DNA of 64,000 bases from Candidatus Omnitrophota bacterium (GCA_040753015.1 JBFMHM010000003.1:218-64217), one strand, 5' to 3'; positions 3,068-43,329 are shown, counted from the stretch's first letter. The notes: generated by a model from the letters alone, not told the origin. Program-made: numbers and translations.

Positions 3068-3812
3068 ATTTTTCTTTCAATTCATCTAATAAATTAAATT
3101 CAAAATTTGTTAAATTTTCTTGGATTAATTCACAATTATGTATTTCTTCAAAACTTGCCTTAATAATTTTTTTAAGTTCGCCCAAGCTAATCGCCCGGAA
3201 TAATACATCTTTTAATGCGCATGTATTTTTATTGAAATCTATTGGTATATTTTTTAAACAAGCCAAAGCATCCTTGAAATCTAACTCTAGTGGAATCACG
3301 CCATGTTGAAAAATTAAATCATGCGATCGTTTCTGGGCATTACCGCCAATTTTTTTACCATTAATCACAATGTCGTAAAACTCTCTTCCTGCAAAACAAA
3401 AAGAATTACTACCTGTTTCTTGGCAAGAAAAATTTACACTTAAACCTAATTTTCTATAACTATGAATTAAAAATGCGCAAATTTTTTTATAGCTTTCTTT
3501 GACTTTACTATCTGCGCCAATCTCTTCTTGCCTACAAGAGATACTATACGTAAGTTCTTTGTTATGATAAATTATTCCGCCGCCTGTAAGACGCCTAACA
3601 AAATCAATTTTCCTCTTACTACATTCATCTAAATTAAATTCTTTTTCTGGTATTTGTGAATATCCAAATGAGAATGCCGCTGGCTCCCATCCATAAAACC
3701 TTAAAGTCGGGCCAACTAAATTATTTTTTCTGGCAGTAAATATTGCCTCATCAATTGCCATATTTGTATAGCAATTAGATGAGCCTGAATCAATAAATCG
3801 CCAATAAGTCAT
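3033..3812 (-). CDS. lipoate-protein ligase / octanoyltransferase family protein (LplA/LipM-type BPL_LplA_LipB domain)
   Basis: RRLTGGGIIYH motif (the lipoyl-AMP-binding RRxxGGG(A/I)(V/I)(F/Y)H signature) and N-terminus MAIDEAI.... 259 aa. Overlaps lipA by 35 nt. Confidence 0.8.
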   Translation of the reverse strand: MTYWRFIDSGSSNCYTNMAIDEAIFTARKNNLVGPTLRFYGWEPAAFSFGYSQIPEKEFNLDECSKRKIDFVRRLTGGGIIYHNKELTYSISCRQEEIGADSKVKESYKKICAFLIHSYRKLGLSVNFSCQETGSNSFCFAGREFYDIVINGKKIGGNAQKRSHDLIFQHGVIPLELDFKDALACLKNIPIDFNKNTCALKDVLFRAISLGELKKIIKASFEEIHNCELIQENLTNFEFNLLDELKEKYAQTAMAKEKN

Positions 3813-3816
3813 CGGA

Positions 3817-5214
3817 TTAGCAGTTATATTTTAATTTTAAATCTTTCACTGCTTTGGTTTCATCTAAACGACTAATAGGCGTTGTAAGCGGGGCATCTTT
3901 AATTGCTTGCGGATTAGTTTTTGCTAAATTTGCAATTTCAATCATTACTTCAATAAATTTATCCAAAGTTTCTTTCGATTCAGTTTCAGTTGGCTCGATC
4001 ATTAATGATTCTTTTACAATTAAAGGAAAGTAAACTGTCGGCGGATGTATTCCTTTGTCAATTAAATATTTTGCGATATCAATTGCATGCACGCCATTTT
4101 CTAGCTGAAAACTTGCGGAAAACACGCACTCATGCATACAAATGCGCTCATAGGGAAGCTCGTAATAATCCTTTAGTTTAACACGGATATAATTTGCATT
4201 TAAAACCGACATTTTAGCAACATCGATTAATCCTTCTTTACCCAACATTAAAATATAGGCATAAGCCTTTAAAATCACGCCAAAATTTCCGTAGAACGGC
4301 GCAACAGAGCCAATTGACCTTTTTCCGCCAGGTAAAAAATCGACTAATTTTTCGCTAACTCCAACTGGCCCCGCACCCGGCCCGCCACCACCATGAGGCG
4401 TAGCAAATGTTTTGTGTAAATTTACATGCACAACATCAAAACCCAAATCTCCGGGACGAGCAATGCCTAAAATTGCATTTAAATTTGCTCCGTCATAATA
4501 AACTAATGCGCCATTTTTATGGGCAAGGTCGGTAACTTCTTTTATCTCTGTCTCAAATAAACCCAAAGTGTTTGGGCAAGTAAGCATAACTGCCGCAGTT
4601 TCGTTATTAATATGCTTTTTATATTCCTCTAAATCAACACAACCATTTTTATTACTTGGTATAACAACGGTTTGATACCCAGCAATTGTAGAGCTAGCGG
4701 GATTAGTACCATGGGAAGAATTGGGAACAATCACATATTTTTTTCTATTCCCTTGATGTTTGTGATATGCAGCAATCAACATTAACCCAGTTAACTCGCC
4801 GTGGGCGCCGGCCATTGGCTCTAAGGTAAATGCCTTCATCCCAAGAATTTCAGATAATAATTTCTCTGTTTCAGAAATTACCGAAAATGCACCACTAGTA
4901 AATTCGCTGCCTAAAACAAGCGGTATCATCGGATGTAAATTACAAAAACCCTCTAATACGGCAACTTTTTCGCTAAATTTTGGGTTATATTTCATCGTGC
5001 AGGAACCAAGCGGATAAAAATTTGTGTCCACAGAAAAATTCATACGCGATAAATTCGTAAAATGCCGCACGCAATCTAGCTCAGAAACTTCTGGAAGATT
5101 CGGCTCTTCTTGGCGTAAATATTTTTTAGGCAGTTTATTATATCCTTCTACACCAGAAGAACTAACCTTAAACCCACACTTACCCTTTACAGATTTCTCG
5201 AAGATTAATTGCAT
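3817..5214 (-). CDS. gcvPB: glycine dehydrogenase (decarboxylating) subunit 2
   Basis: 465 aa. PLP-fold region with the HxNLHKTF motif (HVNLHKTFATPHGGGGPGAGP) typical of GcvPB. Confidence 0.92.
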   Translation of the reverse strand: MQLIFEKSVKGKCGFKVSSSGVEGYNKLPKKYLRQEEPNLPEVSELDCVRHFTNLSRMNFSVDTNFYPLGSCTMKYNPKFSEKVAVLEGFCNLHPMIPLVLGSEFTSGAFSVISETEKLLSEILGMKAFTLEPMAGAHGELTGLMLIAAYHKHQGNRKKYVIVPNSSHGTNPASSTIAGYQTVVIPSNKNGCVDLEEYKKHINNETAAVMLTCPNTLGLFETEIKEVTDLAHKNGALVYYDGANLNAILGIARPGDLGFDVVHVNLHKTFATPHGGGGPGAGPVGVSEKLVDFLPGGKRSIGSVAPFYGNFGVILKAYAYILMLGKEGLIDVAKMSVLNANYIRVKLKDYYELPYERICMHECVFSASFQLENGVHAIDIAKYLIDKGIHPPTVYFPLIVKESLMIEPTETESKETLDKFIEVMIEIANLAKTNPQAIKDAPLTTPISRLDETKAVKDLKLKYNC

Positions 5215-6517
5215 AATTTTCTATTTCTTCTTTTGTCCTTTTCTCAGTGATAGCTACAAGTAAATAATTTTCCATTCCTTTATAATATTTGCCCAAAGAT
5301 ACTCCTGCAACAAAACCTTTTTTCGCCATTTCTTTTACTACAAACTCTGCTGGCTTTGGCAAAAATACAGTGAATTCGTTAAATGTCGGAGAACTTCTCT
5401 TAACCTCAACGCCGGGAATTTTTGAAAGCTCGGTTTTTGCGAACTCCGCACGGTCAAGTAATATTTGGCATAATTTCTTTATGCCGCATTTTCCTAAAAG
5501 TGATAAATAAATTACTGCCCTAAGCGCACACAACGCTTCATTAGAACAAATATTAGAAGTTGCTTTTTCCCGTCGAATATGTTGCTCTCGGGCCTGAAGC
5601 GTTAAAACAAACCCTCGCCTACCTTGTTTATCAACAGTTTCGCCAACAATACGCCCGGGTAGCTGCCGAACATAATCTCTCTTTGTTGCTATAAATCCTA
5701 AGTATGGCCCGCCAAAAGACAAATAATTGCCTAATGACTGGCCTTCACCAGTTACAATATCTGCTTTCATTTCAGCAGGTGTTTTTAGTAAGCCTAAAGA
5801 TATTGGATAAACCGACTCAATTGCAATTGCCCCAACACTATGAACTTTCTCAATTATATCTGAGTGATCATCAATCGCTCCAAAAAAATTCGGGTTCTGT
5901 AAAATTAATGCAGCGGTTTTATCGTCTAAATATTTCAAAATTTCTTCGCGCGAGCTTTGGCCATGCACAATAGGTGTTTCAATAAATTCAATTGATAAAT
6001 TAGCGCAATATGTATACATCATTTTACGGTAAATTGGGTTTACGCCTGAAGACATAATAATTTTATTGCGCCCAGTTATGCGCAAAGACATCATTGCTGC
6101 CTCAAACAAAGCCGTACCTCCGTCGTAAAGCGAGGCATTAGTTACTTGCATGCCAGTTAGCTCACAAATACAAGTCTGGTATTCAAAAATTGCCTGTAGA
6201 GTGCCTTGAGAACATTCTGGCTGATAAGGAGTGTAAGCAGTGTAAAATTCTGCACGGCTAGTAAGGCTATCTACTACTGCTGGAATATAATGATCGTAAA
6301 AACCTGCGCCTAAAAAATTTACGAGATGAGTATTATTTTGGTCACTAAGTTTTTTTACGTACCCTACTACTTCTTGCTCGCTTTTACTATTTGGTAAATT
6401 AAAAGATTTTGCACGCAAGGCTGGCTTGATATCGCTAAATAAATCATCAATTGACTTTACACCAATTGCCTTTAGCATCTCAGCAATTTCTTCTTGCGTA
6501 TGCGGGGTATAATTCAT
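5180..6517 (-). CDS. gcvPA: glycine dehydrogenase (decarboxylating) subunit 1
   Basis: 445 aa. N-terminal MNYTPHTQEEIAEMLKAIGV... and YTPYQPE motif. Overlaps gcvPB by 35 nt. Confidence 0.92.
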   Translation of the reverse strand: MNYTPHTQEEIAEMLKAIGVKSIDDLFSDIKPALRAKSFNLPNSKSEQEVVGYVKKLSDQNNTHLVNFLGAGFYDHYIPAVVDSLTSRAEFYTAYTPYQPECSQGTLQAIFEYQTCICELTGMQVTNASLYDGGTALFEAAMMSLRITGRNKIIMSSGVNPIYRKMMYTYCANLSIEFIETPIVHGQSSREEILKYLDDKTAALILQNPNFFGAIDDHSDIIEKVHSVGAIAIESVYPISLGLLKTPAEMKADIVTGEGQSLGNYLSFGGPYLGFIATKRDYVRQLPGRIVGETVDKQGRRGFVLTLQAREQHIRREKATSNICSNEALCALRAVIYLSLLGKCGIKKLCQILLDRAEFAKTELSKIPGVEVKRSSPTFNEFTVFLPKPAEFVVKEMAKKGFVAGVSLGKYYKGMENYLLVAITEKRTKEEIENYAINLREICKG

Positions 6518-9011: not shown

Positions 9012-9093
9012 GCGGAGGTGGCGGAACTGGCATACGCGCGGGTCTCAGAAGCCCGTGCCGCAAGGCTTGAGGGTTCAACTCCCTCCCTCCGCA
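9012..9093 (+). tRNA. tRNA-Leu (anticodon CAG), class II with long variable arm
   Basis: Folded by hand. Acceptor stem GCGGAGG/CCTCCGC. Anticodon stem CGGGT/GCCCG with loop CTCAGAA, giving anticodon CAG. A 13-nt variable arm carries the gcc/ggc stem. T-arm GAGGG-TTCAACT-CCCTC. Discriminator is A. CCA is not encoded. Confidence 0.85.
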
Positions 9094-9094
9094 T

Positions 9095-9913
9095 TTATTG
9101 GCTCACCCGTCCTGGCATTGCTTCTAAATTTAAATAATCATCAAAATCAACGCCCTTACCCATCGCGTGTTTCACAGCTGCGATACGTTCACTGGTAAAA
9201 GGATGTGTTCTATCATAAGAAAATGGACGTGTAGGGCCTCTTTGATTAATTTTATGAAGCCGGTTTAAAAGTGCAATCATTTTATCTGGATTATAACCTG
9301 CTTTCAGCATATATTTTGCGCCTAATTTATCTGCTTGATACTCATCTTCTTTTGAATAACCTAACAAAATTTGATTAAAAGCAACGTCTATACCCTGGCC
9401 AACATTGCCTGTTTGGGGAGTCGAAGCAACTAAGACTCTTGCCAGCATATATCCCCACATTGCCTGAAGTTTTTTTATCGCATGACGAGCTGTAATATGA
9501 GCTACTTCGTGCGCCAAAATTCCAGCCAGTTCATCATCGTCATCGCCAATTTTATCTAACATTCCTTTAAAAACATAAACATACCCTCCGGGGAGCGCAA
9601 ATGCATTTACTTCATCAACCTTTAAAACTTTAAAATGATATCTTAAATCCTTTCTATCACATACCTCGGCAATTCTTTGCCCAATTTGATTAACGCGCTC
9701 CTGTACGAAGCTATCGTCCAAAACCTTAAATTCTTTTTCTACCTCTTTGCTTAAATTATACCCCATCACCTGTTCTTTCTCTGTGGAATAAATATATAAT
9801 TCTTGCTTTCTCGTCGCAAGATTATATTCAGAAGTAACACAACCCAACAAACCAGATAAAAGAAATAAGATAAAAGAAATAAGATAAAACCTATTAAACA
9901 ATATTAACCCCAA
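9095..9913 (-). CDS. M48 family zinc metallopeptidase, probable lipoprotein
   Basis: HEVAH zinc motif (ILAHEVAHITARHA). N-terminal signal with lipobox LLGC. 272 aa. Confidence 0.8.
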   Translation of the reverse strand: MGLILFNRFYLISFILFLLSGLLGCVTSEYNLATRKQELYIYSTEKEQVMGYNLSKEVEKEFKVLDDSFVQERVNQIGQRIAEVCDRKDLRYHFKVLKVDEVNAFALPGGYVYVFKGMLDKIGDDDDELAGILAHEVAHITARHAIKKLQAMWGYMLARVLVASTPQTGNVGQGIDVAFNQILLGYSKEDEYQADKLGAKYMLKAGYNPDKMIALLNRLHKINQRGPTRPFSYDRTHPFTSERIAAVKHAMGKGVDFDDYLNLEAMPGRVSQ

Positions 9914-10469
9914 TTTTTTTTAACATTTTACCAAGTTTATAGACTGGCAAACCAACAACATTATAATAATCACCTTCTATACGTTTAATAAATAATGCAC
10001 CCTTGCCCTGAATATCAAAACCTCCAGCTAGATTATATGGTTTTACGTGTAAGAAATAAGCATTAATTTCAGCATCACTTAATTTTTCTAAATAAATTTT
10101 TGTCTTTTCCCAAGAAACAATTGTCTTACCAGTTAAAATATCAATTACAGCAATCCCTGAATAAACTAAATGCGGCCTTTTCGAAAATCGTCTTAACATT
10201 TGACGAGCTTCTTTAATATTAACAGGTTTACCAAAAGTTTGCTTGCCATCTAAAACAACTGTGTCTGAAGCAACAATAACCCCATGGTTAAACTTTGTTG
10301 CCACATCTTTTGCTTTATCTAAAGCATTTGCCATAACCATAACAGCGCAACTGGTTTTAATTTCTCTTCTTTCTCTTATATGCGAAGGAAAAACCTTAAC
10401 CTTAAACCCTAAATTTTCCAAGATTTCTTTTCGCGCCTTTGATTTTGATGCTAATATTAATTCTCTCAT
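9894..10469 (-). CDS. maf: Maf-like nucleoside triphosphate pyrophosphatase
   Basis: N-terminal LILASKSKARKEIL and overall 191-aa Maf architecture. Confidence 0.85.
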   Translation of the reverse strand: MRELILASKSKARKEILENLGFKVKVFPSHIRERREIKTSCAVMVMANALDKAKDVATKFNHGVIVASDTVVLDGKQTFGKPVNIKEARQMLRRFSKRPHLVYSGIAVIDILTGKTIVSWEKTKIYLEKLSDAEINAYFLHVKPYNLAGGFDIQGKGALFIKRIEGDYYNVVGLPVYKLGKMLKKIGVNIV

Positions 10470-11695: not shown

Positions 11696-12244
11696 TTACT
11701 TAAAGTCAGCACGGGTGAATAAAGAAATAAGCTGGCAATTTTTTTGGGCAAGCGCCTCTTTTGCTCCTTCTTGGCGGTCAATTACAACAATTGCTTTTTC
11801 AACTTCAATATTTTCCTTATCTAAAACACCTATCGCTTCGATTAATGACCCGCCAGAAGTTGCCACGTCATCAATTAGAATTACTTTTGAACCATTTGGA
11901 ATACTCGGCCCTTCAATCTGCTTGGCCATGCCATGGGCTTTAGCGGTCTTTCTGACAATAAATGTATTTATTGGTTTATTATTTTCAAAACTTACAGTTG
12001 CAATTGCCCCAACAAGTGGATCTGCGCCAATAGTTGGCCCGCCAATTGCACTGATATTTTCATTTTTAATTAAATCAAAAATAATTTTCCCGCAAAGGTA
12101 AGCCCCTTCGGCAGAAAGCGTAACCACACGGCAATCAACATAAAAATTGCTGATTTTCCCGCTAGAAAGCTTTACTTCACCTTTTTTATAGGCAAATTTC
12201 ACCAATAACTCAAGCAATCTTGCTTTATCATTCTGCATAATCAT
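11696..12244 (-). CDS. pyrE: orotate phosphoribosyltransferase
   Basis: 182 aa. FKLSSGKISNFYVDCR and the PRPP-binding loop VILIDDVATSGGS. Confidence 0.9.
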   Translation of the reverse strand: MIMQNDKARLLELLVKFAYKKGEVKLSSGKISNFYVDCRVVTLSAEGAYLCGKIIFDLIKNENISAIGGPTIGADPLVGAIATVSFENNKPINTFIVRKTAKAHGMAKQIEGPSIPNGSKVILIDDVATSGGSLIEAIGVLDKENIEVEKAIVVIDRQEGAKEALAQKNCQLISLFTRADFK

Positions 12245-12377
12245 TAATTCTACGATATTTATATACCTCTGTCAATTGTAAACAAAAAACCCTAAGTTAG
12301 TTGTTCCTTTGAAAGTTTTAGTTTGACCGGGATTAAGTAGATCATGAGAATTTTGAATTTTTTATTTTTAATCTTAA

Positions 12378-13673
12378 TTACATATACCAACAGGGATAAA
12401 AAAGCACGGTGCTTTTATTAATCTTTATCTTTTTTTGATAACCAACGGTTAAAATTAATGCTTTATCGGGCTGGTATGCTTCAATAAAATTCCTGAAACT
12501 TTTTGTAATTTCTGGGGAATTAAGATTAGAAAATTTTATCTCAACCGGCAATATTTTATTATTATTTAATTCAAGGATAAAATCAACCTCGGCCTTGCCC
12601 AGTGTCCGCCAATAACGAATTGATTCTACTTGAGGATAAATTTGATTAAAAATAGTATTTTCTACTAAAAGCCCTGCATCGCTTCTTATATCAAAAGTAT
12701 TAAAATTATTTATGATATAATTTCGTAGACCGGTGTCAGAAAAATAAATTTTTGGATTCTTCTTAAGCTCGGTAGTTTTATTTTTAAAGTAGGGCCTAAT
12801 TTGCCTAATTACAAAAGTTTCCTCTAAGATATTTAGCCATTTTTTCGTTCTTTTAAAATAGCTTTTTGAATCTGTGGTTAAACTATGATAATTAAGCAAT
12901 CCGCCAATTTGATTTGATAACAATTTTAAAATCGTCCTAAAATCAGAAATATCTCCAATATGGAGAAGTTCAATGATATCTTTTGAAATATATGTATCAT
13001 ATATATTTTTAAGAATGATTTTTTTTGTTTCTGTATTAGAGGCCTTCACAACTTCCGGATAGCCCCCAAAGGTAGCATAATCTTCAAAATATTGCCTTAG
13101 TTCTTTTTCGTAAATACTTCCTCTTATTTCTAAATCAGCGCTATTTAAAATAAAATTTTTTAGTTTACTTGATTCTTCTAAATAGTTATTAAATATATTC
13201 TGCTCTTTTGTCTGCAAAAATTCCGCAAAACTAAATTGATAAAGATGAAAAGAAAATAAACGGCCAACGAGATATTTGGCGCAAGCGGCTGTCAGTTCTA
13301 AAGACGAAGAACCGGTTATAATAAATTTAATGTTTTCGTAAATATCATAGAGTAACTTAATTTTTTGGCCGCCGTCTTCTAAATATTGAAACTCATCAAT
13401 CAAAAAATAAAATTTTTGATCTGCCTTGTCGGCTATAAAACTTTTCACGTAAGACTTTGGGTCTTTACTAAAATTCTCTAATATATCCCTATCTTCAAAA
13501 TTCAAATAGATAATTGTTTTAGGGTCAACTTTCCTTTTTGTTTCTAAATACTCTTTAAGTATCTTAAGTAAGGTCGTCTTTCCGGATTGACGCGGGCCTT
13601 TGATTGCAATAATCTCTCTTCTATCAAGCCACTTTTCAACTTCCCCTTCAAGCCTTCTTTTTAAATACTCCAT
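12378..13673 (-). CDS. AAA+ ATPase with DUF4143-type C-terminal domain (paralog 1)
   Basis: Walker A GPRQSGKTTLLK, Walker B FLIDEFQY, and a long C-terminal region. 431 aa. Confidence 0.75.
   Translation of the reverse strand: MEYLKRRLEGEVEKWLDRREIIAIKGPRQSGKTTLLKILKEYLETKRKVDPKTIIYLNFEDRDILENFSKDPKSYVKSFIADKADQKFYFLIDEFQYLEDGGQKIKLLYDIYENIKFIITGSSSLELTAACAKYLVGRLFSFHLYQFSFAEFLQTKEQNIFNNYLEESSKLKNFILNSADLEIRGSIYEKELRQYFEDYATFGGYPEVVKASNTETKKIILKNIYDTYISKDIIELLHIGDISDFRTILKLLSNQIGGLLNYHSLTTDSKSYFKRTKKWLNILEETFVIRQIRPYFKNKTTELKKNPKIYFSDTGLRNYIINNFNTFDIRSDAGLLVENTIFNQIYPQVESIRYWRTLGKAEVDFILELNNNKILPVEIKFSNLNSPEITKSFRNFIEAYQPDKALILTVGYQKKIKINKSTVLFYPCWYM
12398..12416. terminator. bidirectional rho-independent terminator-like hairpin between the ATPase gene and pyrE
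   Basis: Perfect palindrome AAAAGCAC-g-GTGCTTTT flanked by T-runs on both strands. It overlaps the last codons of the 12378..13673 ORF. Confidence 0.4.
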
Positions 13674-13770
13674 AAAAACTCCTTTTTCCTATATTTGCTA
13701 ACTATCTGTTAATAAATATAGCATTAAAATTAACAATTGTCAAATATTTATTTACTTTCCCGCATTATTT

Positions 13771-13779
13771 TGTTATAAT
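13771..13779 (+). promoter_or_regulatory. extended -10 promoter (TGtTATAAT) directly abutting the helicase start codon
   Basis: TGTTATAAT at 13771..13779 ends 6 nt before the ATG at 13786. No Shine-Dalgarno sequence in between (TTTTTT). Confidence 0.3.
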
Positions 13780-13785
13780 TTTTTT

Positions 13786-15660
13786 ATGCTTTACGACCCA
13801 TTCCAGAAAGAGGCGATTGATTATATCAATCAGGGATATTCTGTAATTGTTTCTGCACCAACCGGCGCAGGAAAAACTGCGATTGCCGAACACATTATTA
13901 ACGAATCAATCATCCAAGAGCAAGGCGTAATTTATACTGCACCAATAAAAACGCTCTCTAATCAAAAATTCCGTGATTTCCAAGCACGATTCAACGAAAA
14001 TGTTGGCATCCTAACTGGTGATGTTTCTTTAAATCCCCATGCCCATATACTAATTATGACTACTGAGATATTTCGTAACAAAATTTTAGATGAACCAGAA
14101 TCACTATCTAAATACCACTGGGTAATTTTTGATGAAATCCATTATATCGATAATCCCGAACGCGGCACTGTCTGGGAAGAATCTCTTATATTTATGCCGC
14201 CGCACATCAAGATACTTGCGCTTTCTGCAACTATCCCAAATATAAAACAATTTGCATTGTGGATTGAAACAATACATAAAAAACCAATTAAGGTAGTTAT
14301 TGAGGACAAACGGCCTGTACCGTTGCATTTTTTCTTTCAATCTAATAACGAAGTAGTTGATAATTTAAATAAGGTAAAAAAGTCATTCCACGGCCGCCCA
14401 AATAAGTTAAACACGTTAATAAATTATATTCGTAGAAAAGACGGCCTGCCCTGTATATATTTTGTCTTTGGCAGGCGCCGTGCAGAAGATTTAGCATATG
14501 AACTATATAGCCATAATTTTCTAAACACTGAAGAAAGAAACGCAATAATCGAACTCTATGATTCATTATGTAAGCGTTTTGATCTGATACATGAAAAAAG
14601 CTCAATAAGTATGCAGCCTCTAATCCAAAACGGCATCGCCTTTCATCATGCTGGAATGCTCCCTACTTTAAAAGAAGTAATCGAGCGGCTTTTTACAAGC
14701 CGCCTTTTAAAAGTAATATTTACTACGGAAACATTTGCCTTAGGTATTAATATGCCTAGCCGATCGGTTATCTTCGATGACCTAAGAAAATTTTATGGCC
14801 GTTATGTGAGAAACCTAAAAACCCGTGATTTTTATCAAATGGCTGGCCGCGCCGGCAGACGCGGAATTGATAAAGAAGGATTTATTTATTGCCGAATAAA
14901 TCCTCATAAAATCAGCATTAATGAAGTAAAGCAAATAATCTATTCACGGCCAGAAGAAGTACGCTCTCAACTAAATAACTCATACGCCACAATATTAAAT
15001 TTATATGAAATTTATAAAGATAATATTTTTAAAATTTATCCATACTCTCTACACTATTTCCAGGGCCGTAAAAACGACCAGAAAGAAGCCCTACGCTTAA
15101 TTGAAGCAAAATTAAGACTATTGCATGACTTCGGTTATATAAAAAATAATGAAATAACAGATAAGGGTGAGTTCGCAAAAAACGTTTATGGCTATGAATT
15201 AATCCTATCCGAACTGTACATGCAGGGGTATTTAGAAAAATTTAGTAACACCGAACTTGGTATTATCTGTTCAGCGGTTGTTTTTGAGCCGAGAAAAAAT
15301 CAACGCCTGCCAAGACTTTCGAATAACGTAAAACAAATAAAAACGATATGTGAGCAATTATATGCTGAAATACGATACGCTGAACAAAAATTAAAAATAT
15401 ACCCTTATTCTAAACTCCCCTATTTTAATCTAAGCCCGAGTATCGAAGCTTGGATAAGCGGGGAAAATTTTCAAAAAACTCTTCAATTAGGTGATACTGA
15501 TGAAGGAGAAATCATCAGATATTTCCGTATGTCGGTTCAAATCTTAAGGGAAATAAATAAAGCTAAGATATCGTCTAACAGCCTAAAACAAAAAACTAGC
15601 CAAACAATTCAATCTTTAAACAGAGATATTATTGATGCAGAAAAACAATTACGCAGCTAA
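13786..15660 (+). CDS. Ski2/Mtr4/HelY-like superfamily-2 helicase (DEIH box)
   Basis: Motif I SAPTGAGKT. Motif II DEIHYIDNPERGTVWEESLIFMP, closely resembling the Ski2/Mtr4 DEVHY..ERGVVWEE signature. Motif VI QMAGRAGRRG. 624 aa. Confidence 0.8.
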   Translation: MLYDPFQKEAIDYINQGYSVIVSAPTGAGKTAIAEHIINESIIQEQGVIYTAPIKTLSNQKFRDFQARFNENVGILTGDVSLNPHAHILIMTTEIFRNKILDEPESLSKYHWVIFDEIHYIDNPERGTVWEESLIFMPPHIKILALSATIPNIKQFALWIETIHKKPIKVVIEDKRPVPLHFFFQSNNEVVDNLNKVKKSFHGRPNKLNTLINYIRRKDGLPCIYFVFGRRRAEDLAYELYSHNFLNTEERNAIIELYDSLCKRFDLIHEKSSISMQPLIQNGIAFHHAGMLPTLKEVIERLFTSRLLKVIFTTETFALGINMPSRSVIFDDLRKFYGRYVRNLKTRDFYQMAGRAGRRGIDKEGFIYCRINPHKISINEVKQIIYSRPEEVRSQLNNSYATILNLYEIYKDNIFKIYPYSLHYFQGRKNDQKEALRLIEAKLRLLHDFGYIKNNEITDKGEFAKNVYGYELILSELYMQGYLEKFSNTELGIICSAVVFEPRKNQRLPRLSNNVKQIKTICEQLYAEIRYAEQKLKIYPYSKLPYFNLSPSIEAWISGENFQKTLQLGDTDEGEIIRYFRMSVQILREINKAKISSNSLKQKTSQTIQSLNRDIIDAEKQLRS

Positions 15661-16345
15661 CAAAAGTTATGTTAAAAAAATATCTGACTCTTTGGCTAAT
15701 ATAATTTTTCCTCATATCTGCCTTGTGTGTAAAAAAAGATTACTCGATAAAAAACAAGTTATCTGCGCAAGTTGTGAGAAAAAATTCGCGGTTAAGCGCC
15801 TGAGCGCGCCGGAAAATTTTAAAAAATTTCATCTAGATTCCTCTAATAGCGTCTTTATTTATCAAGAACCTGTATCCAGCTTAATCTGCCTTTTTAAATA
15901 TAAAGCAAAATTATCACTGGGTAATTTTTTTGGCCAGAAAATGGTTGAATACATTAAAAACTTCCCTCTATTGAATAATATTGATATAATTGTTCCTATA
16001 CCCCTGCATCAAAAAAGGCTTAGAGAAAGAGAGTTTAATCAGGCTGAAATTTTGGCAGGAATAATTTCTAGAGAGTATAATTTTAAATTGGAATCTAAGG
16101 CAATAGTTAGAATTCATATGAAAAACGTTCAAAGTTCACTTAAAAAAGATAAAAGGTTCGAGAATATTAAAGGGGCATTTAAAATAAAGCAAGATATTTT
16201 TAGAAACAAAAATATCTTGCTTGTTGACGACGTTTTTACAACAGGCGCAACCCTATCTGAAGCAGCGCTTACATTAAAAGAAGCTGGGGCAAGCCAAGTT
16301 CGTGCGTTTACCCTAGCAAGGACAATAAATGAGAATATTGCGTGA
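15632..16345 (+). CDS. comF: ComF family protein (ComFC-like phosphoribosyltransferase with N-terminal double zinc ribbon)
   Basis: CLVCKK...CASCEKKF zinc ribbon, then the type-I PRT PRPP loop ILLVDDVFTTGATL. 237 aa. Overlaps the helicase 3' end by 29 nt. Confidence 0.8.
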   Translation: MMQKNNYAANKSYVKKISDSLANIIFPHICLVCKKRLLDKKQVICASCEKKFAVKRLSAPENFKKFHLDSSNSVFIYQEPVSSLICLFKYKAKLSLGNFFGQKMVEYIKNFPLLNNIDIIVPIPLHQKRLREREFNQAEILAGIISREYNFKLESKAIVRIHMKNVQSSLKKDKRFENIKGAFKIKQDIFRNKNILLVDDVFTTGATLSEAALTLKEAGASQVRAFTLARTINENIA

Positions 16346-17417
16346 TTATGTTTTAAATGAGTTTTGGGGGCCTTTTCTAGGTTGTTTAGGTGTTATGACT
16401 ATAGTCATGGTTTTAGGCAACCTAATCAAGCTTGCTAATATGGTAATTAACCGCGGCGTAAATATAATTATCATAGGAAAACTATTTATGTATCTTCTAC
16501 CATTTCTGTTGTCTTATACTATCCCCATCAGTATGCTTTTAGCTGCCTTGATTTGTTTAGGTAGGCTTTCTTCAGATAATGAAATTATAGCAATACAGGC
16601 AAGCGGCATTAACACTTTTAGAATTATCCTACCATTAATTATTATTTCTTTTATCTTAAGCTTATTTTTACTTATTTTAAATGACCGTATTATCCCAAAA
16701 GTGCATTATGCCTCAAGAAAAACCGTTGAAGAAATCGGCTTAAAAAGCCCGGCTGCCGCTCTTGAGCCAGGTACCTTTATAGACGCATTCCAGGGCAATA
16801 TTATTTTTATTTATAGGATTGAAGGTAATAAGTTATATGATATACGTATATATCAGCCCGAAGAAGGAAAACCAACAAGAACTATAATTGCAAAACAAGG
16901 TGAATTTATTGCGTTGCCTGAAAGAAAAGCTATTAAGTTAAAACTAGTTGATGGATCAACAGATGAACCAGACCCAGAAAATCCAAAAAATTTCTATAAA
17001 CTAACATTTAAACAATATTTTATGACTATGGATTTGGCTAAAGTATCGCAAAAATTAGAAAAGAAACTCAAAGACATGACTGTTAAAGAATTAAAAAAAG
17101 AGGTTGTCAAATATCAAGCTAAGAAAGTGGATGTTAACCCACTTTACACAGAAATACACAGAAAGCTTGCTCTCTCTTTTGCCCCTCTAGCATTCATTCT
17201 AATCGGAGCTCCTCTCGCAATGGTAACGAAGCGCCGCCAAGTTTCAATAAATTTCGGCCTTGGTTTTTTTATTATAATGATTTATTACCTTCTAGTTCTT
17301 GCGTTTCAAGCGCTTTCAGTAGAAGCAAAAATTACGCCTGTGCTAGGAATGTGGATAACAAATATTATATTTATTTCAACCGGAAGCTATTTAATATATA
17401 AACAATGCGTATCATAG
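16329..17417 (+). CDS. LptF/LptG family LPS export permease
   Basis: YjgP/YjgQ-type architecture: three N-terminal TM segments, a periplasmic beta-jellyroll region, then C-terminal TMs. 362 aa. Confidence 0.8.
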   Translation: MRILRDYVLNEFWGPFLGCLGVMTIVMVLGNLIKLANMVINRGVNIIIIGKLFMYLLPFLLSYTIPISMLLAALICLGRLSSDNEIIAIQASGINTFRIILPLIIISFILSLFLLILNDRIIPKVHYASRKTVEEIGLKSPAAALEPGTFIDAFQGNIIFIYRIEGNKLYDIRIYQPEEGKPTRTIIAKQGEFIALPERKAIKLKLVDGSTDEPDPENPKNFYKLTFKQYFMTMDLAKVSQKLEKKLKDMTVKELKKEVVKYQAKKVDVNPLYTEIHRKLALSFAPLAFILIGAPLAMVTKRRQVSINFGLGFFIIMIYYLLVLAFQALSVEAKITPVLGMWITNIIFISTGSYLIYKQCVS

Positions 17418-18490
17418 ATAAGTATATTTTAAAATCTCAAGTTAAATTATTTATTGGGGCTGTCGGCTCTTTTTTCTTCCTTTATTTAATCATCGATATA
17501 TTGGGCCATCTCGATGATTATATAAAATTAAAGGTGCCGTTTAGCCTTCTTAAAACATATTATTTAAATTTTCTTCCCAGTATTTTCATACAAACTTCGC
17601 CTGTTGCCTGCCTGCTTGCAAGCCTATACACACTCGGAAAATTAAATAAGAATAACGAAATAATTGCTATGCGTTCTGCAGGTTTAAGTTTCTGGCAAAT
17701 TGCAAAGCCAATATTCAGCTTTGCCTTAATTTTAAGCGTATCTATATTTTATGTAAATGAAAAAATTGTACCGTCATCTGAAAGGAAAAATGCTACGATA
17801 AAAATGGATCTTGCTGCAGAAAAGGTAAACGTCAGTGAAAATACTCTAAAAAATCTAACCCTCTACGGCATGGATAATCGGCTTTTCTTCATAAATACCT
17901 TCGATTTTAAAAAGAAAAGAATGGAAGATATAATTATTTTAGAAGAAGATAACCGTCAGAACGTAAAATCAAAAATTATTGCTAAAGAGGCTGTGTATCG
18001 TGATGGACTTTGGAATTTTTACCAATGTTTCATATATGATTTTAAAAAAACATCTAACCCTGAACCAGAATTCTATCAAGAACATATAATAAATATTGCT
18101 GAAAAACCAGAAGATTTTCTAAAAGAACGGGCACGGCCGGAATTAATGAATTTGATCGAACTCAACAGTTATATTTGGCGGCTTTCTCAAAGCAATGTTC
18201 CACAGGTAATCAGAAATTTAAAAGTCGACCTATATCACAAAATACTTTTCCCTTTTACAAGCCTCGTACTTATACTTATCGGCATACCATTTACCTTTAT
18301 GACAAAGAAAAAAGTTGCTGTAATCGCGTCGTTCGGCATCTCTTTAATAATTGGTTTTCTTTATTTTGCAATTGATGCAATCAGTCTAGCTCTTGGAAAG
18401 GGCAAAATCCTGCCTCCGCTTATCGCGGCTTCGTTTAGTTATATTCTGTTTTCTTTTATCGGCTTTAAATTAATCCGCAAAATCCCTTAA
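17405..18490 (+). CDS. LptF/LptG family LPS export permease (second paralog)
   Basis: Same architecture as the preceding gene. 361 aa. Overlaps it by 13 nt, the typical lptF-lptG pair. Confidence 0.8.
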   Translation: MRIIDKYILKSQVKLFIGAVGSFFFLYLIIDILGHLDDYIKLKVPFSLLKTYYLNFLPSIFIQTSPVACLLASLYTLGKLNKNNEIIAMRSAGLSFWQIAKPIFSFALILSVSIFYVNEKIVPSSERKNATIKMDLAAEKVNVSENTLKNLTLYGMDNRLFFINTFDFKKKRMEDIIILEEDNRQNVKSKIIAKEAVYRDGLWNFYQCFIYDFKKTSNPEPEFYQEHIINIAEKPEDFLKERARPELMNLIELNSYIWRLSQSNVPQVIRNLKVDLYHKILFPFTSLVLILIGIPFTFMTKKKVAVIASFGISLIIGFLYFAIDAISLALGKGKILPPLIAASFSYILFSFIGFKLIRKIP

Positions 18491-19067
18491 ATAATTTTTC
18501 GCTTTTAAAAGTAAGCTCAATTTTTTGCTTATAATTTTCAAACTTCTTTATATTGTTAAGATAAAAATTATGAAAAATTGTTGAATAATCCAAAGGGCTT
18601 GCTAGTTTTAAATCAAGCTCTAATTTATTTACAATTTTTTTAATCTTTCGCTGGCTACTTGATTCAATCTCTAAAAAATAACCTAAAAATGGTAGCTTAT
18701 CTACAAGCAACAAACAACTATCCAATCTATAAGTTTCTCTAATTTTTTCTTTACGCATTGACTCTTTAAAACCTAACCGCTTTAATATATATAAGATACT
18801 TTTTGCACTATCTACAAATGATTCAATTTCATTACGCTGCTTAAAAAATTTTGTATCGCTGCCTCCATACTTTAATGTCAATAAGCCTTTTTTTCCGTAA
18901 TCTCTTAAACGAAAAATTAATTCTTTATTATTTTTAGAAAAACTTGGAGATTTAAAATAAATATCAGCTTCTTTAGCTTTTCCTAAAAATTTTGCTTTTA
19001 TTTTATTTAGCTTATTTTTTATCTCTTCTGTATTATTTAATTTAAATTTTAATTCTATCTCCATCAA
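18465..19067 (-). CDS. CYTH-domain protein (triphosphate tunnel metalloenzyme / CyaB-like)
   Basis: N-terminal EIELKF (ExExK) motif, then further alternating acidic/basic beta-strand motifs (FRLRD, LTLKYGG, EIE). 200 aa. Confidence 0.7.
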   Translation of the reverse strand: MMEIELKFKLNNTEEIKNKLNKIKAKFLGKAKEADIYFKSPSFSKNNKELIFRLRDYGKKGLLTLKYGGSDTKFFKQRNEIESFVDSAKSILYILKRLGFKESMRKEKIRETYRLDSCLLLVDKLPFLGYFLEIESSSQRKIKKIVNKLELDLKLASPLDYSTIFHNFYLNNIKKFENYKQKIELTFKSEKLFKGFCGLI

Positions 19068-19094: not shown

Positions 19095-20213
19095 TCACTT
19101 ATCTATATATACATGGTTAAGCCGTCCAAAACCACAAACTATTTCATAAGCAATAGTAGATGCTTTATCCGCAAGTTCACTAGCGGTAATTTTATTGTTT
19201 TTTGATTCTCCTAATAAAATAACTTCATCTTCAAATTTTGCTCTTGAGCTACTGCCTAAATCAACTAAAATCTGGTCCATACAAACCCGCCCGGCAATTC
19301 TATACCGCTTATCATTAATTATAACATCGGCCTTATTTGATAGAACTCTGGGGTAACCATCACCATATCCTAAAGGTAATGTAGCAATATAACGGCTTGT
19401 TTTTGCAATATAGGTATGGCCGTAACTAATACCTTGGCCTCGGGATACTTTTTTTATAAAAATAATTTTTGTTTTAACACTCATCAAGGGCCTTAAATGT
19501 AATTTAAGGTTCTCCTTGGGAGACAAACCATAAATTACTATTCCAGGACGAATTAAGTTAAAATGGCTTAAGCTATATTTTAAAACACCCACACTATTTG
19601 CTGCATGAATTAATGGTATATCAATACTAGAACGGCTTAATTGAACTAATATATTATTAAATAAACTAATCTGATAATAAGTATATTCTTTATCGCTATC
19701 GGCTTTTGGAAAATGCGTAAACAATCCCTCTATTTTAATTGATTTTAACTTGTTCGTATCTCTAATAAAATTAAAAGCATCGCTATAATTTATACCTAAT
19801 CTCCCCATACCCGTGTCAATTTTTATATGTATCGGGCTTATCAAACCCCTCCTGGCTGATTCTTTATCTAGAATCAATGCCTGTTCTCTGCTGCAAATTG
19901 TAGGAGTTAATTTAAACCTAGGCAATAAATGAATATCCTTATTAAATATGAGGCTTAAGATTAAAATTGGCAATTTTATATTTGCTTCTCTTAATTTAAT
20001 TGCCTCATCAATATCCCTAACACCAAGAAAATCAACACCTAGATCAATGAGTTTTTTTGATATAGGTATTAAACCATGGCCGTAGGCATCAGATTTCACT
20101 GGCACAAGAATTTTTGTCTTAGGCCTAATAATACTTTTTATATGCTTAAAATTATACTCTAGATTTTTTAAATTTATCTCGGCCTGCGTTTGTCTAAAAA
20201 AATTATTTATCAT
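19095..20213 (-). CDS. alr: alanine racemase
   Basis: PLP-lysine motif VPVKSDAYGHG. 372 aa. Confidence 0.9.
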   Translation of the reverse strand: MINNFFRQTQAEINLKNLEYNFKHIKSIIRPKTKILVPVKSDAYGHGLIPISKKLIDLGVDFLGVRDIDEAIKLREANIKLPILILSLIFNKDIHLLPRFKLTPTICSREQALILDKESARRGLISPIHIKIDTGMGRLGINYSDAFNFIRDTNKLKSIKIEGLFTHFPKADSDKEYTYYQISLFNNILVQLSRSSIDIPLIHAANSVGVLKYSLSHFNLIRPGIVIYGLSPKENLKLHLRPLMSVKTKIIFIKKVSRGQGISYGHTYIAKTSRYIATLPLGYGDGYPRVLSNKADVIINDKRYRIAGRVCMDQILVDLGSSSRAKFEDEVILLGESKNNKITASELADKASTIAYEIVCGFGRLNHVYIDK

Positions 20214-42147: not shown

Positions 42148-43329
42148 TTAAATTAACCCGCTAAGAAATTTACTTGCATCAATAACGCGAATATTATCTT
42201 TTAAAATATCAATTCCTTCTTCCTTTATAATTTGATAACTAAAAGGAATTTTAAGTTTTTCGTTAAAATACTTGAGATGGCTAGAAATTTCTTTCGATGA
42301 GTTTTTGACTTCAGCAGAAAACCATGGTTTACCATCTACTGTAACTAAGAAATCAACTTCTCTTTGTTCTTTATCACGTAAATAGTATAGTTCTAATCTA
42401 TAACCTTCGGCATCAAATATAAAATTACAAAATTTCAAAAGATGGCTAGCAACTATATTTTCAAGCTTTATGTCATCATCTTTAATTTCAGACCAATCCC
42501 AAAGATAAAGCTTTGGTTCTTTTCTAAGTGATTTTATTAAATTACTATTAAAAGGGTATATTCGAAAGTGATAGTAGAATTTTTCTAAGATATCTACCCA
42601 ATGTGATAATGTTTTATGCGTAGTATTTAGATCTTCACGTAAAGAATTTAGGGAAAACAACGAGCCAACTTTTGATGGTAAAAGTTCAACCAATACTTCT
42701 AAGGCGGATAGATCTCTTAAATTTTCAATATCACGGATATCTTCTTTAATTAGCCTATCTACTCTTTCGTTATGCCACCGCCTTAATTCTTTTTCATTTT
42801 TGCTTAGAAAAACTTCCGGAAATCCACCAAACTTAAAAAGATTATTAAAAATTTCGCTTTGTTTATTTGTGTTGTTCGTAAAATTCAATTCATGAAATGG
42901 CACGAAAGAAGAATTATAATCCATTACTTCTGCCAAAGAAAACGGATGCAAACGGTATAAATGATACCTGCCTAATAAAGAATCTCCGCCTTTTCTAAAA
43001 ATATCTAGCCTAGCACTTCCGGTTACAATAATATTGCATTTTTCTTTATACTTATCATATTGGCCTTTTAAATAATTCTTCCAAACTTTATATTTGTGTA
43101 TTTCATCGAATATTAATAATCTTTTGTCGGCCTCGAAAGCTAAATCCAATATTTTCCTTCTGTCTTGACGCGCATCCCAATTTAAATATTCATATTTTTT
43201 ATCAAAATAATTATTACCGAGAAGCTTCGCAAGGGTAGTCTTGCCTACCTGCCTTGGCCCGCTAATAAAAACCATTTTCGCCTTTAGATCTTCAAAGATT
43301 TTATTCTCTAGGTATCTTTTAATCATCAT
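42148..43329 (-). CDS. AAA+ ATPase with DUF4143-type C-terminal domain (paralog 2)
   Basis: Walker A GPRQVGKTTLAK, Walker B LIFDEIHKY. 393 aa. Same architecture as the ORF at 12378..13673 but highly divergent in sequence. Confidence 0.75.
   Translation of the reverse strand: MMIKRYLENKIFEDLKAKMVFISGPRQVGKTTLAKLLGNNYFDKKYEYLNWDARQDRRKILDLAFEADKRLLIFDEIHKYKVWKNYLKGQYDKYKEKCNIIVTGSARLDIFRKGGDSLLGRYHLYRLHPFSLAEVMDYNSSFVPFHELNFTNNTNKQSEIFNNLFKFGGFPEVFLSKNEKELRRWHNERVDRLIKEDIRDIENLRDLSALEVLVELLPSKVGSLFSLNSLREDLNTTHKTLSHWVDILEKFYYHFRIYPFNSNLIKSLRKEPKLYLWDWSEIKDDDIKLENIVASHLLKFCNFIFDAEGYRLELYYLRDKEQREVDFLVTVDGKPWFSAEVKNSSKEISSHLKYFNEKLKIPFSYQIIKEEGIDILKDNIRVIDASKFLSGLI

Follow-up and report, generated by a model that had tools for sequence, protein, structure and literature searches.

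In the comFA-comFB-comFC operon of Firmicutes, a superfamily 2 (SF2) helicase gene immediately precedes a comF-family gene that is read from the same strand. ComFA is a different kind of helicase from the members of the Ski2/Mtr4/HelY branch. It has not been found in Gram-negative bacteria, for which a partner of ComFC still to be found has been proposed (PMC9005727). Another combination of a helicase with a ComF-like phosphoribosyltransferase (PRTase) is RqlH/PsyrT, a RecQ-like helicase fused to a PRTase domain (PMC4670107). In the Ski2/Mtr4/HelY branch itself (COG4581, SF2 RNA helicases with a DSHCT domain), HelY of Mycobacterium smegmatis cannot load on DNA, has an RNA-stimulated ATPase and unwinds RNA in the 3′→5′ direction (Uson et al. 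2015, as quoted in PMC8931766).

Here we compare with these systems a locus in a 64 000-nt stretch of DNA (hereafter ‘the window’) of a Candidatus Omnitrophota bacterium (GCA_040753015.1, JBFMHM010000003.1:218-64217). In this locus a gene for a Ski2/Mtr4-like DEIH helicase overlaps the start of a comF-family gene and stands divergent to a gene for an ATPase with a DUF4143 domain. The preliminary description of this DNA read the arrangement as a possible DNA-uptake motor or, alternatively, as a nucleic-acid surveillance module. The comparative data presented below point elsewhere: the locus is very probably a lineage-specific juxtaposition of unrelated genes in a conserved housekeeping region of Omnitrophota. 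The genes are of known kinds; what is new is how they are arranged.

Distribution of the helicase–comF pair

An alignment of helicase sequences was used to scan genomes (one genome per species, a sample that excludes the window's own genome), and the flanks of the best 80 of at least 587 confirmed matches were inspected up to 6 kb on each side. With the addition of four loci on long contigs (L001–L004) encoding two close homologues of the helicase, where comF was not nearby either, the set comprised 84 helicase loci from outside the window's clade. No homologue of ComF or of the DUF4143 ATPase was detected in the flanks of any of the 84. A scan of genome contigs with the helicase as a single sequence had given no matches.

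The search from the comF side led to a similar picture. Among the loci found, the order helicase-comF-lptF was present only in the window and in three close relatives on short contigs (L005, L006 and L091), with ComF proteins 58–65% identical to that of the window. The last one was the informative locus among at least two obtained in a metagenome scan with a clade-level ComF alignment (L092, at 28% identity, was not used). In three more distant loci (L087–L089) the genes comF-lptF-lptG are situated between the same flanks as in the window, with genes for a PRTase, an HI0933-like protein and Maf/M48 on the left and for alanine racemase (alr), a TsaB-like protein, TsaE and an AIRS-family protein on the right, and there is no helicase gene. 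A helicase gene is also missing from L090, a short contig with comF-lptF-lptG preceded by PRTase and M48 genes. The place of the DUF4143 gene is taken in L087–L089 by genes for a PMT glycosyltransferase and a polysaccharide deacetylase; the DUF4143 gene itself was seen neither in L087–L090 nor in any surveyed helicase locus.

Conservation of the helicase–comF adjacency, on which a functional reading of the locus would lean, was thus not borne out: the pairing occurs in 0/84 helicase loci from outside the clade and in 0/4 distant comF loci. Confined to one small clade, it comes close to being unique to this genome, which the preliminary description had named as a refutation of its reading. Because of this absence on both sides we regard it as a lineage-specific rearrangement. 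The clade is small, since in a collection of 5.8 billion sequences only four protein clusters are at least 60% identical to the ComF of the window; the next ones do not exceed 45%.

As the window comes from a metagenome-assembled genome (MAG), and as L091 shows frameshift-like breaks, a chimeric helicase–comF join produced in assembly or binning has to be considered. However, the same helicase-comF-lptF order is present on three independent contigs (Logan ERR15087771, Logan SRR16108674 and a JGI metagenome) that differ in sample and source and whose junction sequences align, which makes an artefact exceedingly improbable.

The genes next to the helicase vary among the surveyed loci: DUF3786 (8/65) and SNase (6/65) are direct upstream neighbours, NUDIX (10/63) and Macro (8/63) direct downstream ones. 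In the nearest group, with helicases 66–75% identical to that of the window, the order on the upstream side is DprA←SKI←SpoVG←AroC←SNase←(DUF3786), followed by helicase→ and, on the other side, by ←Macro-NUDIX; the helicase is a lone gene here, with a divergent neighbour on one side and a convergent one on the other. An SNase-domain gene lies divergently upstream of the helicase gene in 16 of the 80 loci, as well as in L001–L004, and there is none in the window. A Macro-NUDIX fusion gene is convergent to the helicase gene in ∼16/80 loci (e.g. L009, L010–L018, L022, L033, L057, L061 and L066). SNase and Macro-NUDIX form a recurrent neighbourhood of nucleotide and nucleic-acid metabolism around the nearest relatives, which is absent from the window. 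A constant exosome-like nuclease partner, named in the preliminary description as a possible sign of a role in RNA decay, did not emerge, given that SNase is confined to 16/80 loci and other neighbours vary. We also looked for an empty ancestral site; none of the SNase, DUF3786, AroC, SpoVG, SKI, DprA and Macro-NUDIX genes was found within the 64-kb window.

In a neighbour-joining tree built from the C-terminal 400 residues, the helicases of the window and L005 are placed beside or within the group with the SNase context. The helicase is therefore an ordinary orthologue in a new place.

We propose the following scenario. The ancestral unit would be comF-lptF-lptG, with the divergent PRTase, HI0933-like and Maf/M48 genes on its left and the convergent alr, tsaB-like, tsaE and AIRS genes on its right. 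In the small clade of the window, a vertically inherited helicase gene would have been relocated to a position just ahead of comF, within the divergent gap, either bringing its close-coupled −10 box along or forming it anew. The other side of the gap, occupied by the glycosyltransferase/deacetylase pair in some relatives, would have received an accessory DUF4143 ATPase gene. Subsequent compaction would have given rise to the overlaps of open reading frames (ORFs), with no shared function implied. Given the tight spacing, the helicase promoter now probably drives co-transcription of all four genes, helicase, comF, lptF and lptG; comF-lptFG would then rely mainly on read-through from this promoter.

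Several points weigh against this scenario. All four sampled members of the clade have kept the arrangement, two of them with the comF start inside the helicase gene, and selection could conceivably act on co-expression of helicase and comF. The survey is a sample, with the numbers of matches and the flank length given above and with the window's own genome outside it. Finally, the move was given its direction by parsimony, with outgroup contexts located on separate contigs rather than with one rooted genome tree.

Organization of the locus

The helicase, ComF and DUF4143 ATPase proteins of the window are each 100% identical to NCBI proteins of a single 169 526-bp contig of the Candidatus Omnitrophota MAG. 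GC content of the window is ∼33%. The three ORFs described previously are present with the boundaries given here, together with the neighbouring features:

11696..12244, minus strand: PRTase (PyrE-like) gene (Pfam Pribosyltran, 1.8e-11), the left synteny anchor common to other Omnitrophota comF loci
12378..13673, minus strand: ATPase with AAA_14 and DUF4143 domains (Pfam), an accessory gene outside the conserved synteny
13751..13779, plus strand: promoter-like site of the helicase gene, TTTACT-17 nt-TGn-TATAAT, with the −10 ending 6 nt before the ATG and no Shine–Dalgarno (SD) sequence
13786..15660, plus strand: DEIH helicase classed as arch-less Ski2/Mtr4-like, with C-terminal DSHCT domain, 624 aa
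15635..16345 (or from TTG 15632), plus strand: ComF-family protein with a single four-Cys zinc ribbon and a PRTase domain
16329..17417, plus strand: lptF (Pfam LptF_LptG, 2.2e-83; TIGR04407, 6e-61), overlapping comF by 17 nt
17405..18490, plus strand: lptG (Pfam, 1.3e-76; TIGR04408, 1.7e-68), overlapping lptF by 13 nt, last gene of the plus-strand block
19095..20213, minus strand: alr, the right synteny anchor, followed by TsaB-like, TsaE and AIRS-family genes

The plus-strand block 13786–18490 consists of four overlapping ORFs: helicase, comF, lptF and lptG. The gene calls made earlier hold, but the end of the unit at position 16345 does not: as comF overlaps lptF and lptF overlaps lptG, the unit has four genes. 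A gap of 112 nt divides the divergent DUF4143 ATPase and helicase genes and holds promoter-like sites arranged back to back, one per strand. Rfam and tRNA scans gave no match within the locus.

A tightly packed comF-lptF-lptG unit is conserved in each of the eight comF loci of Omnitrophota studied here (window, L005, L006, L087–L091). LptF and LptG, judged by their families, would export lipopolysaccharide (LPS). We know of no functional explanation for the linkage of comF to genes of LPS export permeases; its stability in eight loci is a modest, descriptive observation on an uncultured phylum.

Some features were observed around the locus. The strand bias is strong, with nearly all long ORFs of the window on the minus strand; the exceptions are the block 13786–18490 and tRNA-Leu(CAG) at 9012–9093. 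GC skew is negative over the whole 64 kb save 16–18 kb. Between lptG and alr there is a CYTH-domain gene (18465–19067, minus strand), convergent to lptG, with which it shares 26 nt at the 3′ ends; no such gene is present at this place in L087–L089. Maf (9894–10469, minus strand) and M48 (9095–9913, minus strand) are encoded in the window by two ORFs in different frames with a 20-nt overlap. The same two domains are fused in one protein of ∼451–457 aa in L087–L089 (positions 1–554), and M48 is separate in L090. The split seen in the window reflects a difference between lineages or else a frameshift.

Type of the helicase

The translated sequence of the helicase contains the Q motif PFQ, motif I SAPTGAGKT, the stretch DEIHYIDNPERGTVWEE, motif II DEIH and motif VI QMAGRAGRRG. 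It matches the Pfam families DEAD (4.8e-28), Helicase_C (2.6e-07) and DSHCT (9e-26); the last match (PF08148, residues 454–617) has a score of 91.1 bits, the cut-off being 22.7. Compared with sequences from the PDB, the helicase is most similar to Ski2 (1.2e-110, 374 bits) and Mtr4 (1.5e-106, 361 bits), followed at a distance by Hel308 (4.9e-44, 154 bits) and Brr2 (140 bits). A Foldseek search gave an order that agrees with that of the sequence search (Ski2/Mtr4 1e-30, Hel308 5e-17) and serves as support only, the AlphaFold model being mediocre: it was built from a shallow alignment of 34 sequences and has a predicted local distance difference test (pLDDT) score of 68, a predicted template modelling (pTM) score of 0.43 and values below 50 in the RecA2 region. 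Scores against NCBIfam models of the Hel308 and Lhr types were far under their cut-offs, and no ComFA-type family was among the 24 NCBIfam matches. The assignment to the Ski2/Mtr4/HelY branch made in the preliminary description is supported, as opposed to Hel308 or Lhr, by the PDB ranking and by the DSHCT score above the Pfam cut-off.

In the alignment with Ski2 (4a4z_A), ∼235 residues of the chain, between ∼562 and ∼797, are skipped at query positions ∼435–442, and the helicase aligns contiguously to the arch-deleted Ski2 construct 4buj_A. Because of this skip and of the unbroken second alignment, we place the helicase, from its sequence, in the Ski2/Mtr4/HelY branch as a naturally arch-less form. 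Its orthologues, ∼625 aa long and 70–75% identical, are encoded on a great many Omnitrophota contigs; farther arch-less forms (35–42% identical) are present in Planctomycetota and Fibrobacterota. A literature search revealed nothing relevant on bacterial arch-less DSHCT helicases. By analogy with mycobacterial HelY and eukaryotic Mtr4/Ski2, the protein is predicted to be an RNA-dependent ATPase unwinding RNA in the 3′→5′ direction, and its family membership suggests that it probably serves RNA decay or processing. That Omnitrophota carry a very conserved and apparently leaderless (see below) helicase of the arch-less Ski2/Mtr4 type is a descriptive finding that fits known families.

ComF and its junction with the helicase gene

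The best family match of the ComF protein was TIGR00201 comF (4.9e-37), where the score of 127.7 bits is under the NCBIfam trusted cut-off of 233.55; PRK11595 GntX is also among the best matches. An identical protein is named ‘ComF family protein’ at NCBI, in a 236-aa model starting at the ATG. The Pfam Pribosyltran domain scores 32.2 bits (cut-off 26.3), with LLVDDVFTTGAT as the loop binding phosphoribosyl pyrophosphate (PRPP); against PDB sequences, only generic PRTases were detected (E ∼5e-4). The four N-terminal cysteines form one zinc ribbon, CLVC...CASC (residues 29–47 of 236), and the Pfam DZR_2 match spans only profile positions 2–31 of 56. Near residues ∼55–60 the protein is without 21 residues present in its four closest relatives (P0122–P0125), and this stretch bears a second CxxC...CxxC. 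The in-frame loss may be a real deletion or an artefact of the MAG consensus. The earlier call of a ComFC-type protein is thus right in the family (TIGR00201) and the PRPP loop (LLVDDVFTTGAT), and the double zinc ribbon has to be replaced by a single one with four Cys. Its family membership would suggest a role in the handling of single-stranded DNA (ssDNA) in transformation, if the cells are competent.

The overlap with the helicase gene was given previously as 29 nt; this is correct for a start at TTG 15632, and from the ATG 15635 chosen by NCBI it is 26 nt (TTG 15692 is another possible start). In both the window and L006, the comF ATG lies within the last codons of the helicase gene, with the same 26-nt overlap. 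In L005, one extra base puts an ATG located after the stop codon in frame, and instead of an overlap there is an 8-nt gap. The overlap itself is not fixed even inside the clade.

These data bear on the suggestion that a Ski2-like helicase was recruited as an analogue of Firmicute ComFA and, together with ComF, pulls or processes incoming ssDNA, the overlap serving to match expression of the two genes. The retention of the adjacency in four clade members and the comF start within the helicase gene in two of them would agree with such a motor. The absence of ComFA from Gram-negative bacteria, invoked as its background, agrees with PMC9005727 as well, but does not rescue the inference. No co-occurrence was seen in the 84 helicase loci and four comF loci lying outside the clade. 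Moreover, there is no sign of co-evolution: the helicase remains 70–75% identical throughout the phylum, whereas ComF drops to ∼43%. The helicase, which lacks a ComFA-type NCBIfam match, belongs to an RNA-specific branch whose member HelY, in the statement quoted in PMC8931766, cannot load on DNA, and the 8-nt gap of L005 removes the overlap in one of the few genomes having the pair. We therefore consider a DNA-uptake motor very improbable.

A narrower version would be co-option limited to the clade, in which the relocated arch-less helicase became a ComFA-like ATPase partner of ComF, with the overlap and the lost second ribbon as adaptations. It would be the first non-orthologous helicase–ComF pair for DNA uptake in a diderm; in our view, it is highly unlikely. 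A functional pairing of helicase and ComF would bear on the power source of DNA import in Gram-negative bacteria without ComFA; on the comparative evidence, the locus does not bear on this question.

The DUF4143 ATPase

The product of the divergent gene matches Pfam AAA_14 (1.3e-30, 106.5 bits) and DUF4143 (3.5e-35, 121.6 bits), both above cut-offs. Identity to its nearest homologues is no higher than 63%, and matches that bear a name are from Omnitrophota, Elusimicrobiota and Aminicenantes. The gene has the SD sequence AGGAG and a promoter-like site TTGACA-17-TATATT at 13743–13715 on the minus strand. A second AAA_14/DUF4143-type paralogue, 26% identical, is encoded at 42148–43329 (minus strand) behind a TTGACA…TATAAT site and an AGGAG motif.

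Matches to the PADLOC profiles raise the possibility of a surveillance or defence module, in which the DUF4143 ATPase, the helicase and the ComF PRTase act together in the manner of RqlH/PsyrT or Hachiman HamB: the ATPase matches PDC-S01 (1.4e-80), the helicase matches HamB (9.2e-37), and ComF matches the PRTase part of PsyrT (2.4e-16) and ShosT (9.8e-14). A helicase–PRTase fusion is indeed known in RqlH/PsyrT (PMC4670107). Nevertheless, the HamB match reflects generic Ski2-like similarity; ComF scores 127.7 bits against comF and 57.2 bits against PsyrT; and the genes of both helicase and ComF belong to the core, are inherited vertically and have conserved contexts of their own. The candidate PDC-S01 consists of a single gene, and DUF4143 never accompanies the helicase in the 84 helicase loci outside the clade; partner genes were not found at the locus. 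That the three proteins form one module, as the preliminary description had offered as an alternative, we hold to be most unlikely.

The Hachiman and PsyrTA/ShosTA systems were examined as candidates on account of the PADLOC matches and rejected, because partner genes are missing and both helicase and ComF genes are core. For Hachiman, no HamA was found beside the helicase, whose neighbours are the DUF4143 ATPase (no HamA match) and ComF. Genes like PsyrA or ShosA are absent too from the surroundings of the pair, which consist of lptF/lptG and a PRTase gene.

A literature search on the function of DUF4143 returned nothing relevant. From its family membership, the ATPase would act on its own, possibly in defence.

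Start of the helicase mRNA

The preliminary description noted an extended −10 box ending 6 nt before the helicase ATG and no SD sequence. This is what we see: TGTTATAAT at 13771–13779 is located six nt ahead of the ATG at 13786, with a −35-like TTTACT 17 nt upstream. Taken alone, the −10 box is weak evidence, because promoter-like hexamers are common in AT-rich DNA (37 found in the region versus 27.9 expected).

The comparison of orthologues is more informative. A −10 box with at most one mismatch ends 5–8 nt upstream of the start codon in 35 of the 57 orthologues from Omnitrophota for which an ATG could be assigned, and in 18/169 control genes (other genes of the same loci with an upstream gap of at least 40 nt). 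SD-like motifs were found in 2/57 orthologues and 87/169 controls. The loci counted are phylogenetically related, so Fisher p-values overstate their independence. The pattern of a −10 box without SD holds from ∼50% to 75% helicase identity, and the text TTGGATAAATCAA..ATTTTAGATTATAAT-N6-7-ATG is common to many orthologues. The proposal of a leaderless helicase mRNA has thus gained comparative support; leaderless initiation is probably a conserved trait of this gene. No relevant literature was found on leaderless translation in Omnitrophota.

Other genes of the window show low SD use and occasional −10 boxes near the start, and leaderless initiation may not be rare in this genome. For instance, a site TTGACA-17-TAGAAT at 12238–12275 (minus strand) ends 2 nt upstream of the first PRTase ATG, and a second ATG in the same frame (MIM…) follows at a distance of 8 nt from the site; if it starts at the second ATG, the PRTase gene may be leaderless as well.

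The promoter spacer is itself conserved in some of the orthologues. The text GATAAATCAAC/T…TTTTAGAT, 45 nt upstream of the helicase ATG, is shared by L001, L003, L007, L009, L010, L014, L057, L066 and L079 although their helicases are only 65–75% identical; the promoter of the window retains only the part proximal to the −10. The conserved spacer hints at a regulator-binding site in a shared divergent promoter region.

In five loci (L008, L011, L013, L017 and L050), the promoter …GATAAATCAA…TAGATTATAAT sits 130–330 nt further upstream (stretches L008 ∼3560–3883, L011 ∼5700–6000, L013 ∼5830–6000, L017 ∼3110–3505 and L050 ∼5680–6000). The space is filled with palindromic units …ATAACTTAyGGAGCG…CGTAAGTTAT…, which end with GTAAGTTATCTGCTCATT(T)AA-ATG. 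The same 18-mer is present elsewhere in two loci (L003 at 7907, 7929 and 13421; L011 at 9364). Its distribution suggests a dispersed Omnitrophota repeat, similar to repetitive extragenic palindromes (REP) or miniature inverted-repeat transposable elements (MITE), that can turn a leaderless gene into one with a long leader.

Downstream of the helicase start, the final ∼900 nt of the gene hold no promoter-like site. A site TTGGCA-18-TATAAT inside comF (16052–16081) could serve lptFG.

Comparison with known systems

The likeness of the helicase to the Ski2/Mtr4/HelY family extends to the DEIH motif II, the Q, I and VI motifs and the C-terminal DSHCT domain. It differs in having only 624 aa and in being devoid of an N-terminal extension and of the arch/insertion (KOW) domain that characterizes eukaryotic Ski2 and Mtr4. 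Biochemically, its closest bacterial relative is HelY of M. smegmatis.

With ComFC/ComF proteins (Bacillus ComFC, Helicobacter pylori ComFC and Escherichia coli GntX), the ComF of the window shares the N-terminal four-Cys zinc finger and the PRTase fold with PRPP loop. It differs from them in scoring under the trusted cut-off, in being without the second ribbon of its nearest relatives and in its location in an operon with lptF/lptG. The ATPase is a full-length match to both Pfam domains and profiles of the PDC-S01 candidate, with nothing distinctive, and its defence role is that of a candidate only.

As a combination of a helicase with a ComF-like PRTase domain, the locus resembles RqlH/PsyrT with RqlI/PsyrA; in contrast to that system, it has two separate core genes, a Ski2-like and not a RecQ-like helicase, and no partner of the RqlI/PsyrA type. 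In gene order, the locus resembles the Firmicute comFA operon. There the helicase gene is comFA, whereas the helicase of the window is Ski2-like, of RNA type and no orthologue of ComFA, and its adjacency to comF is limited to one small clade.

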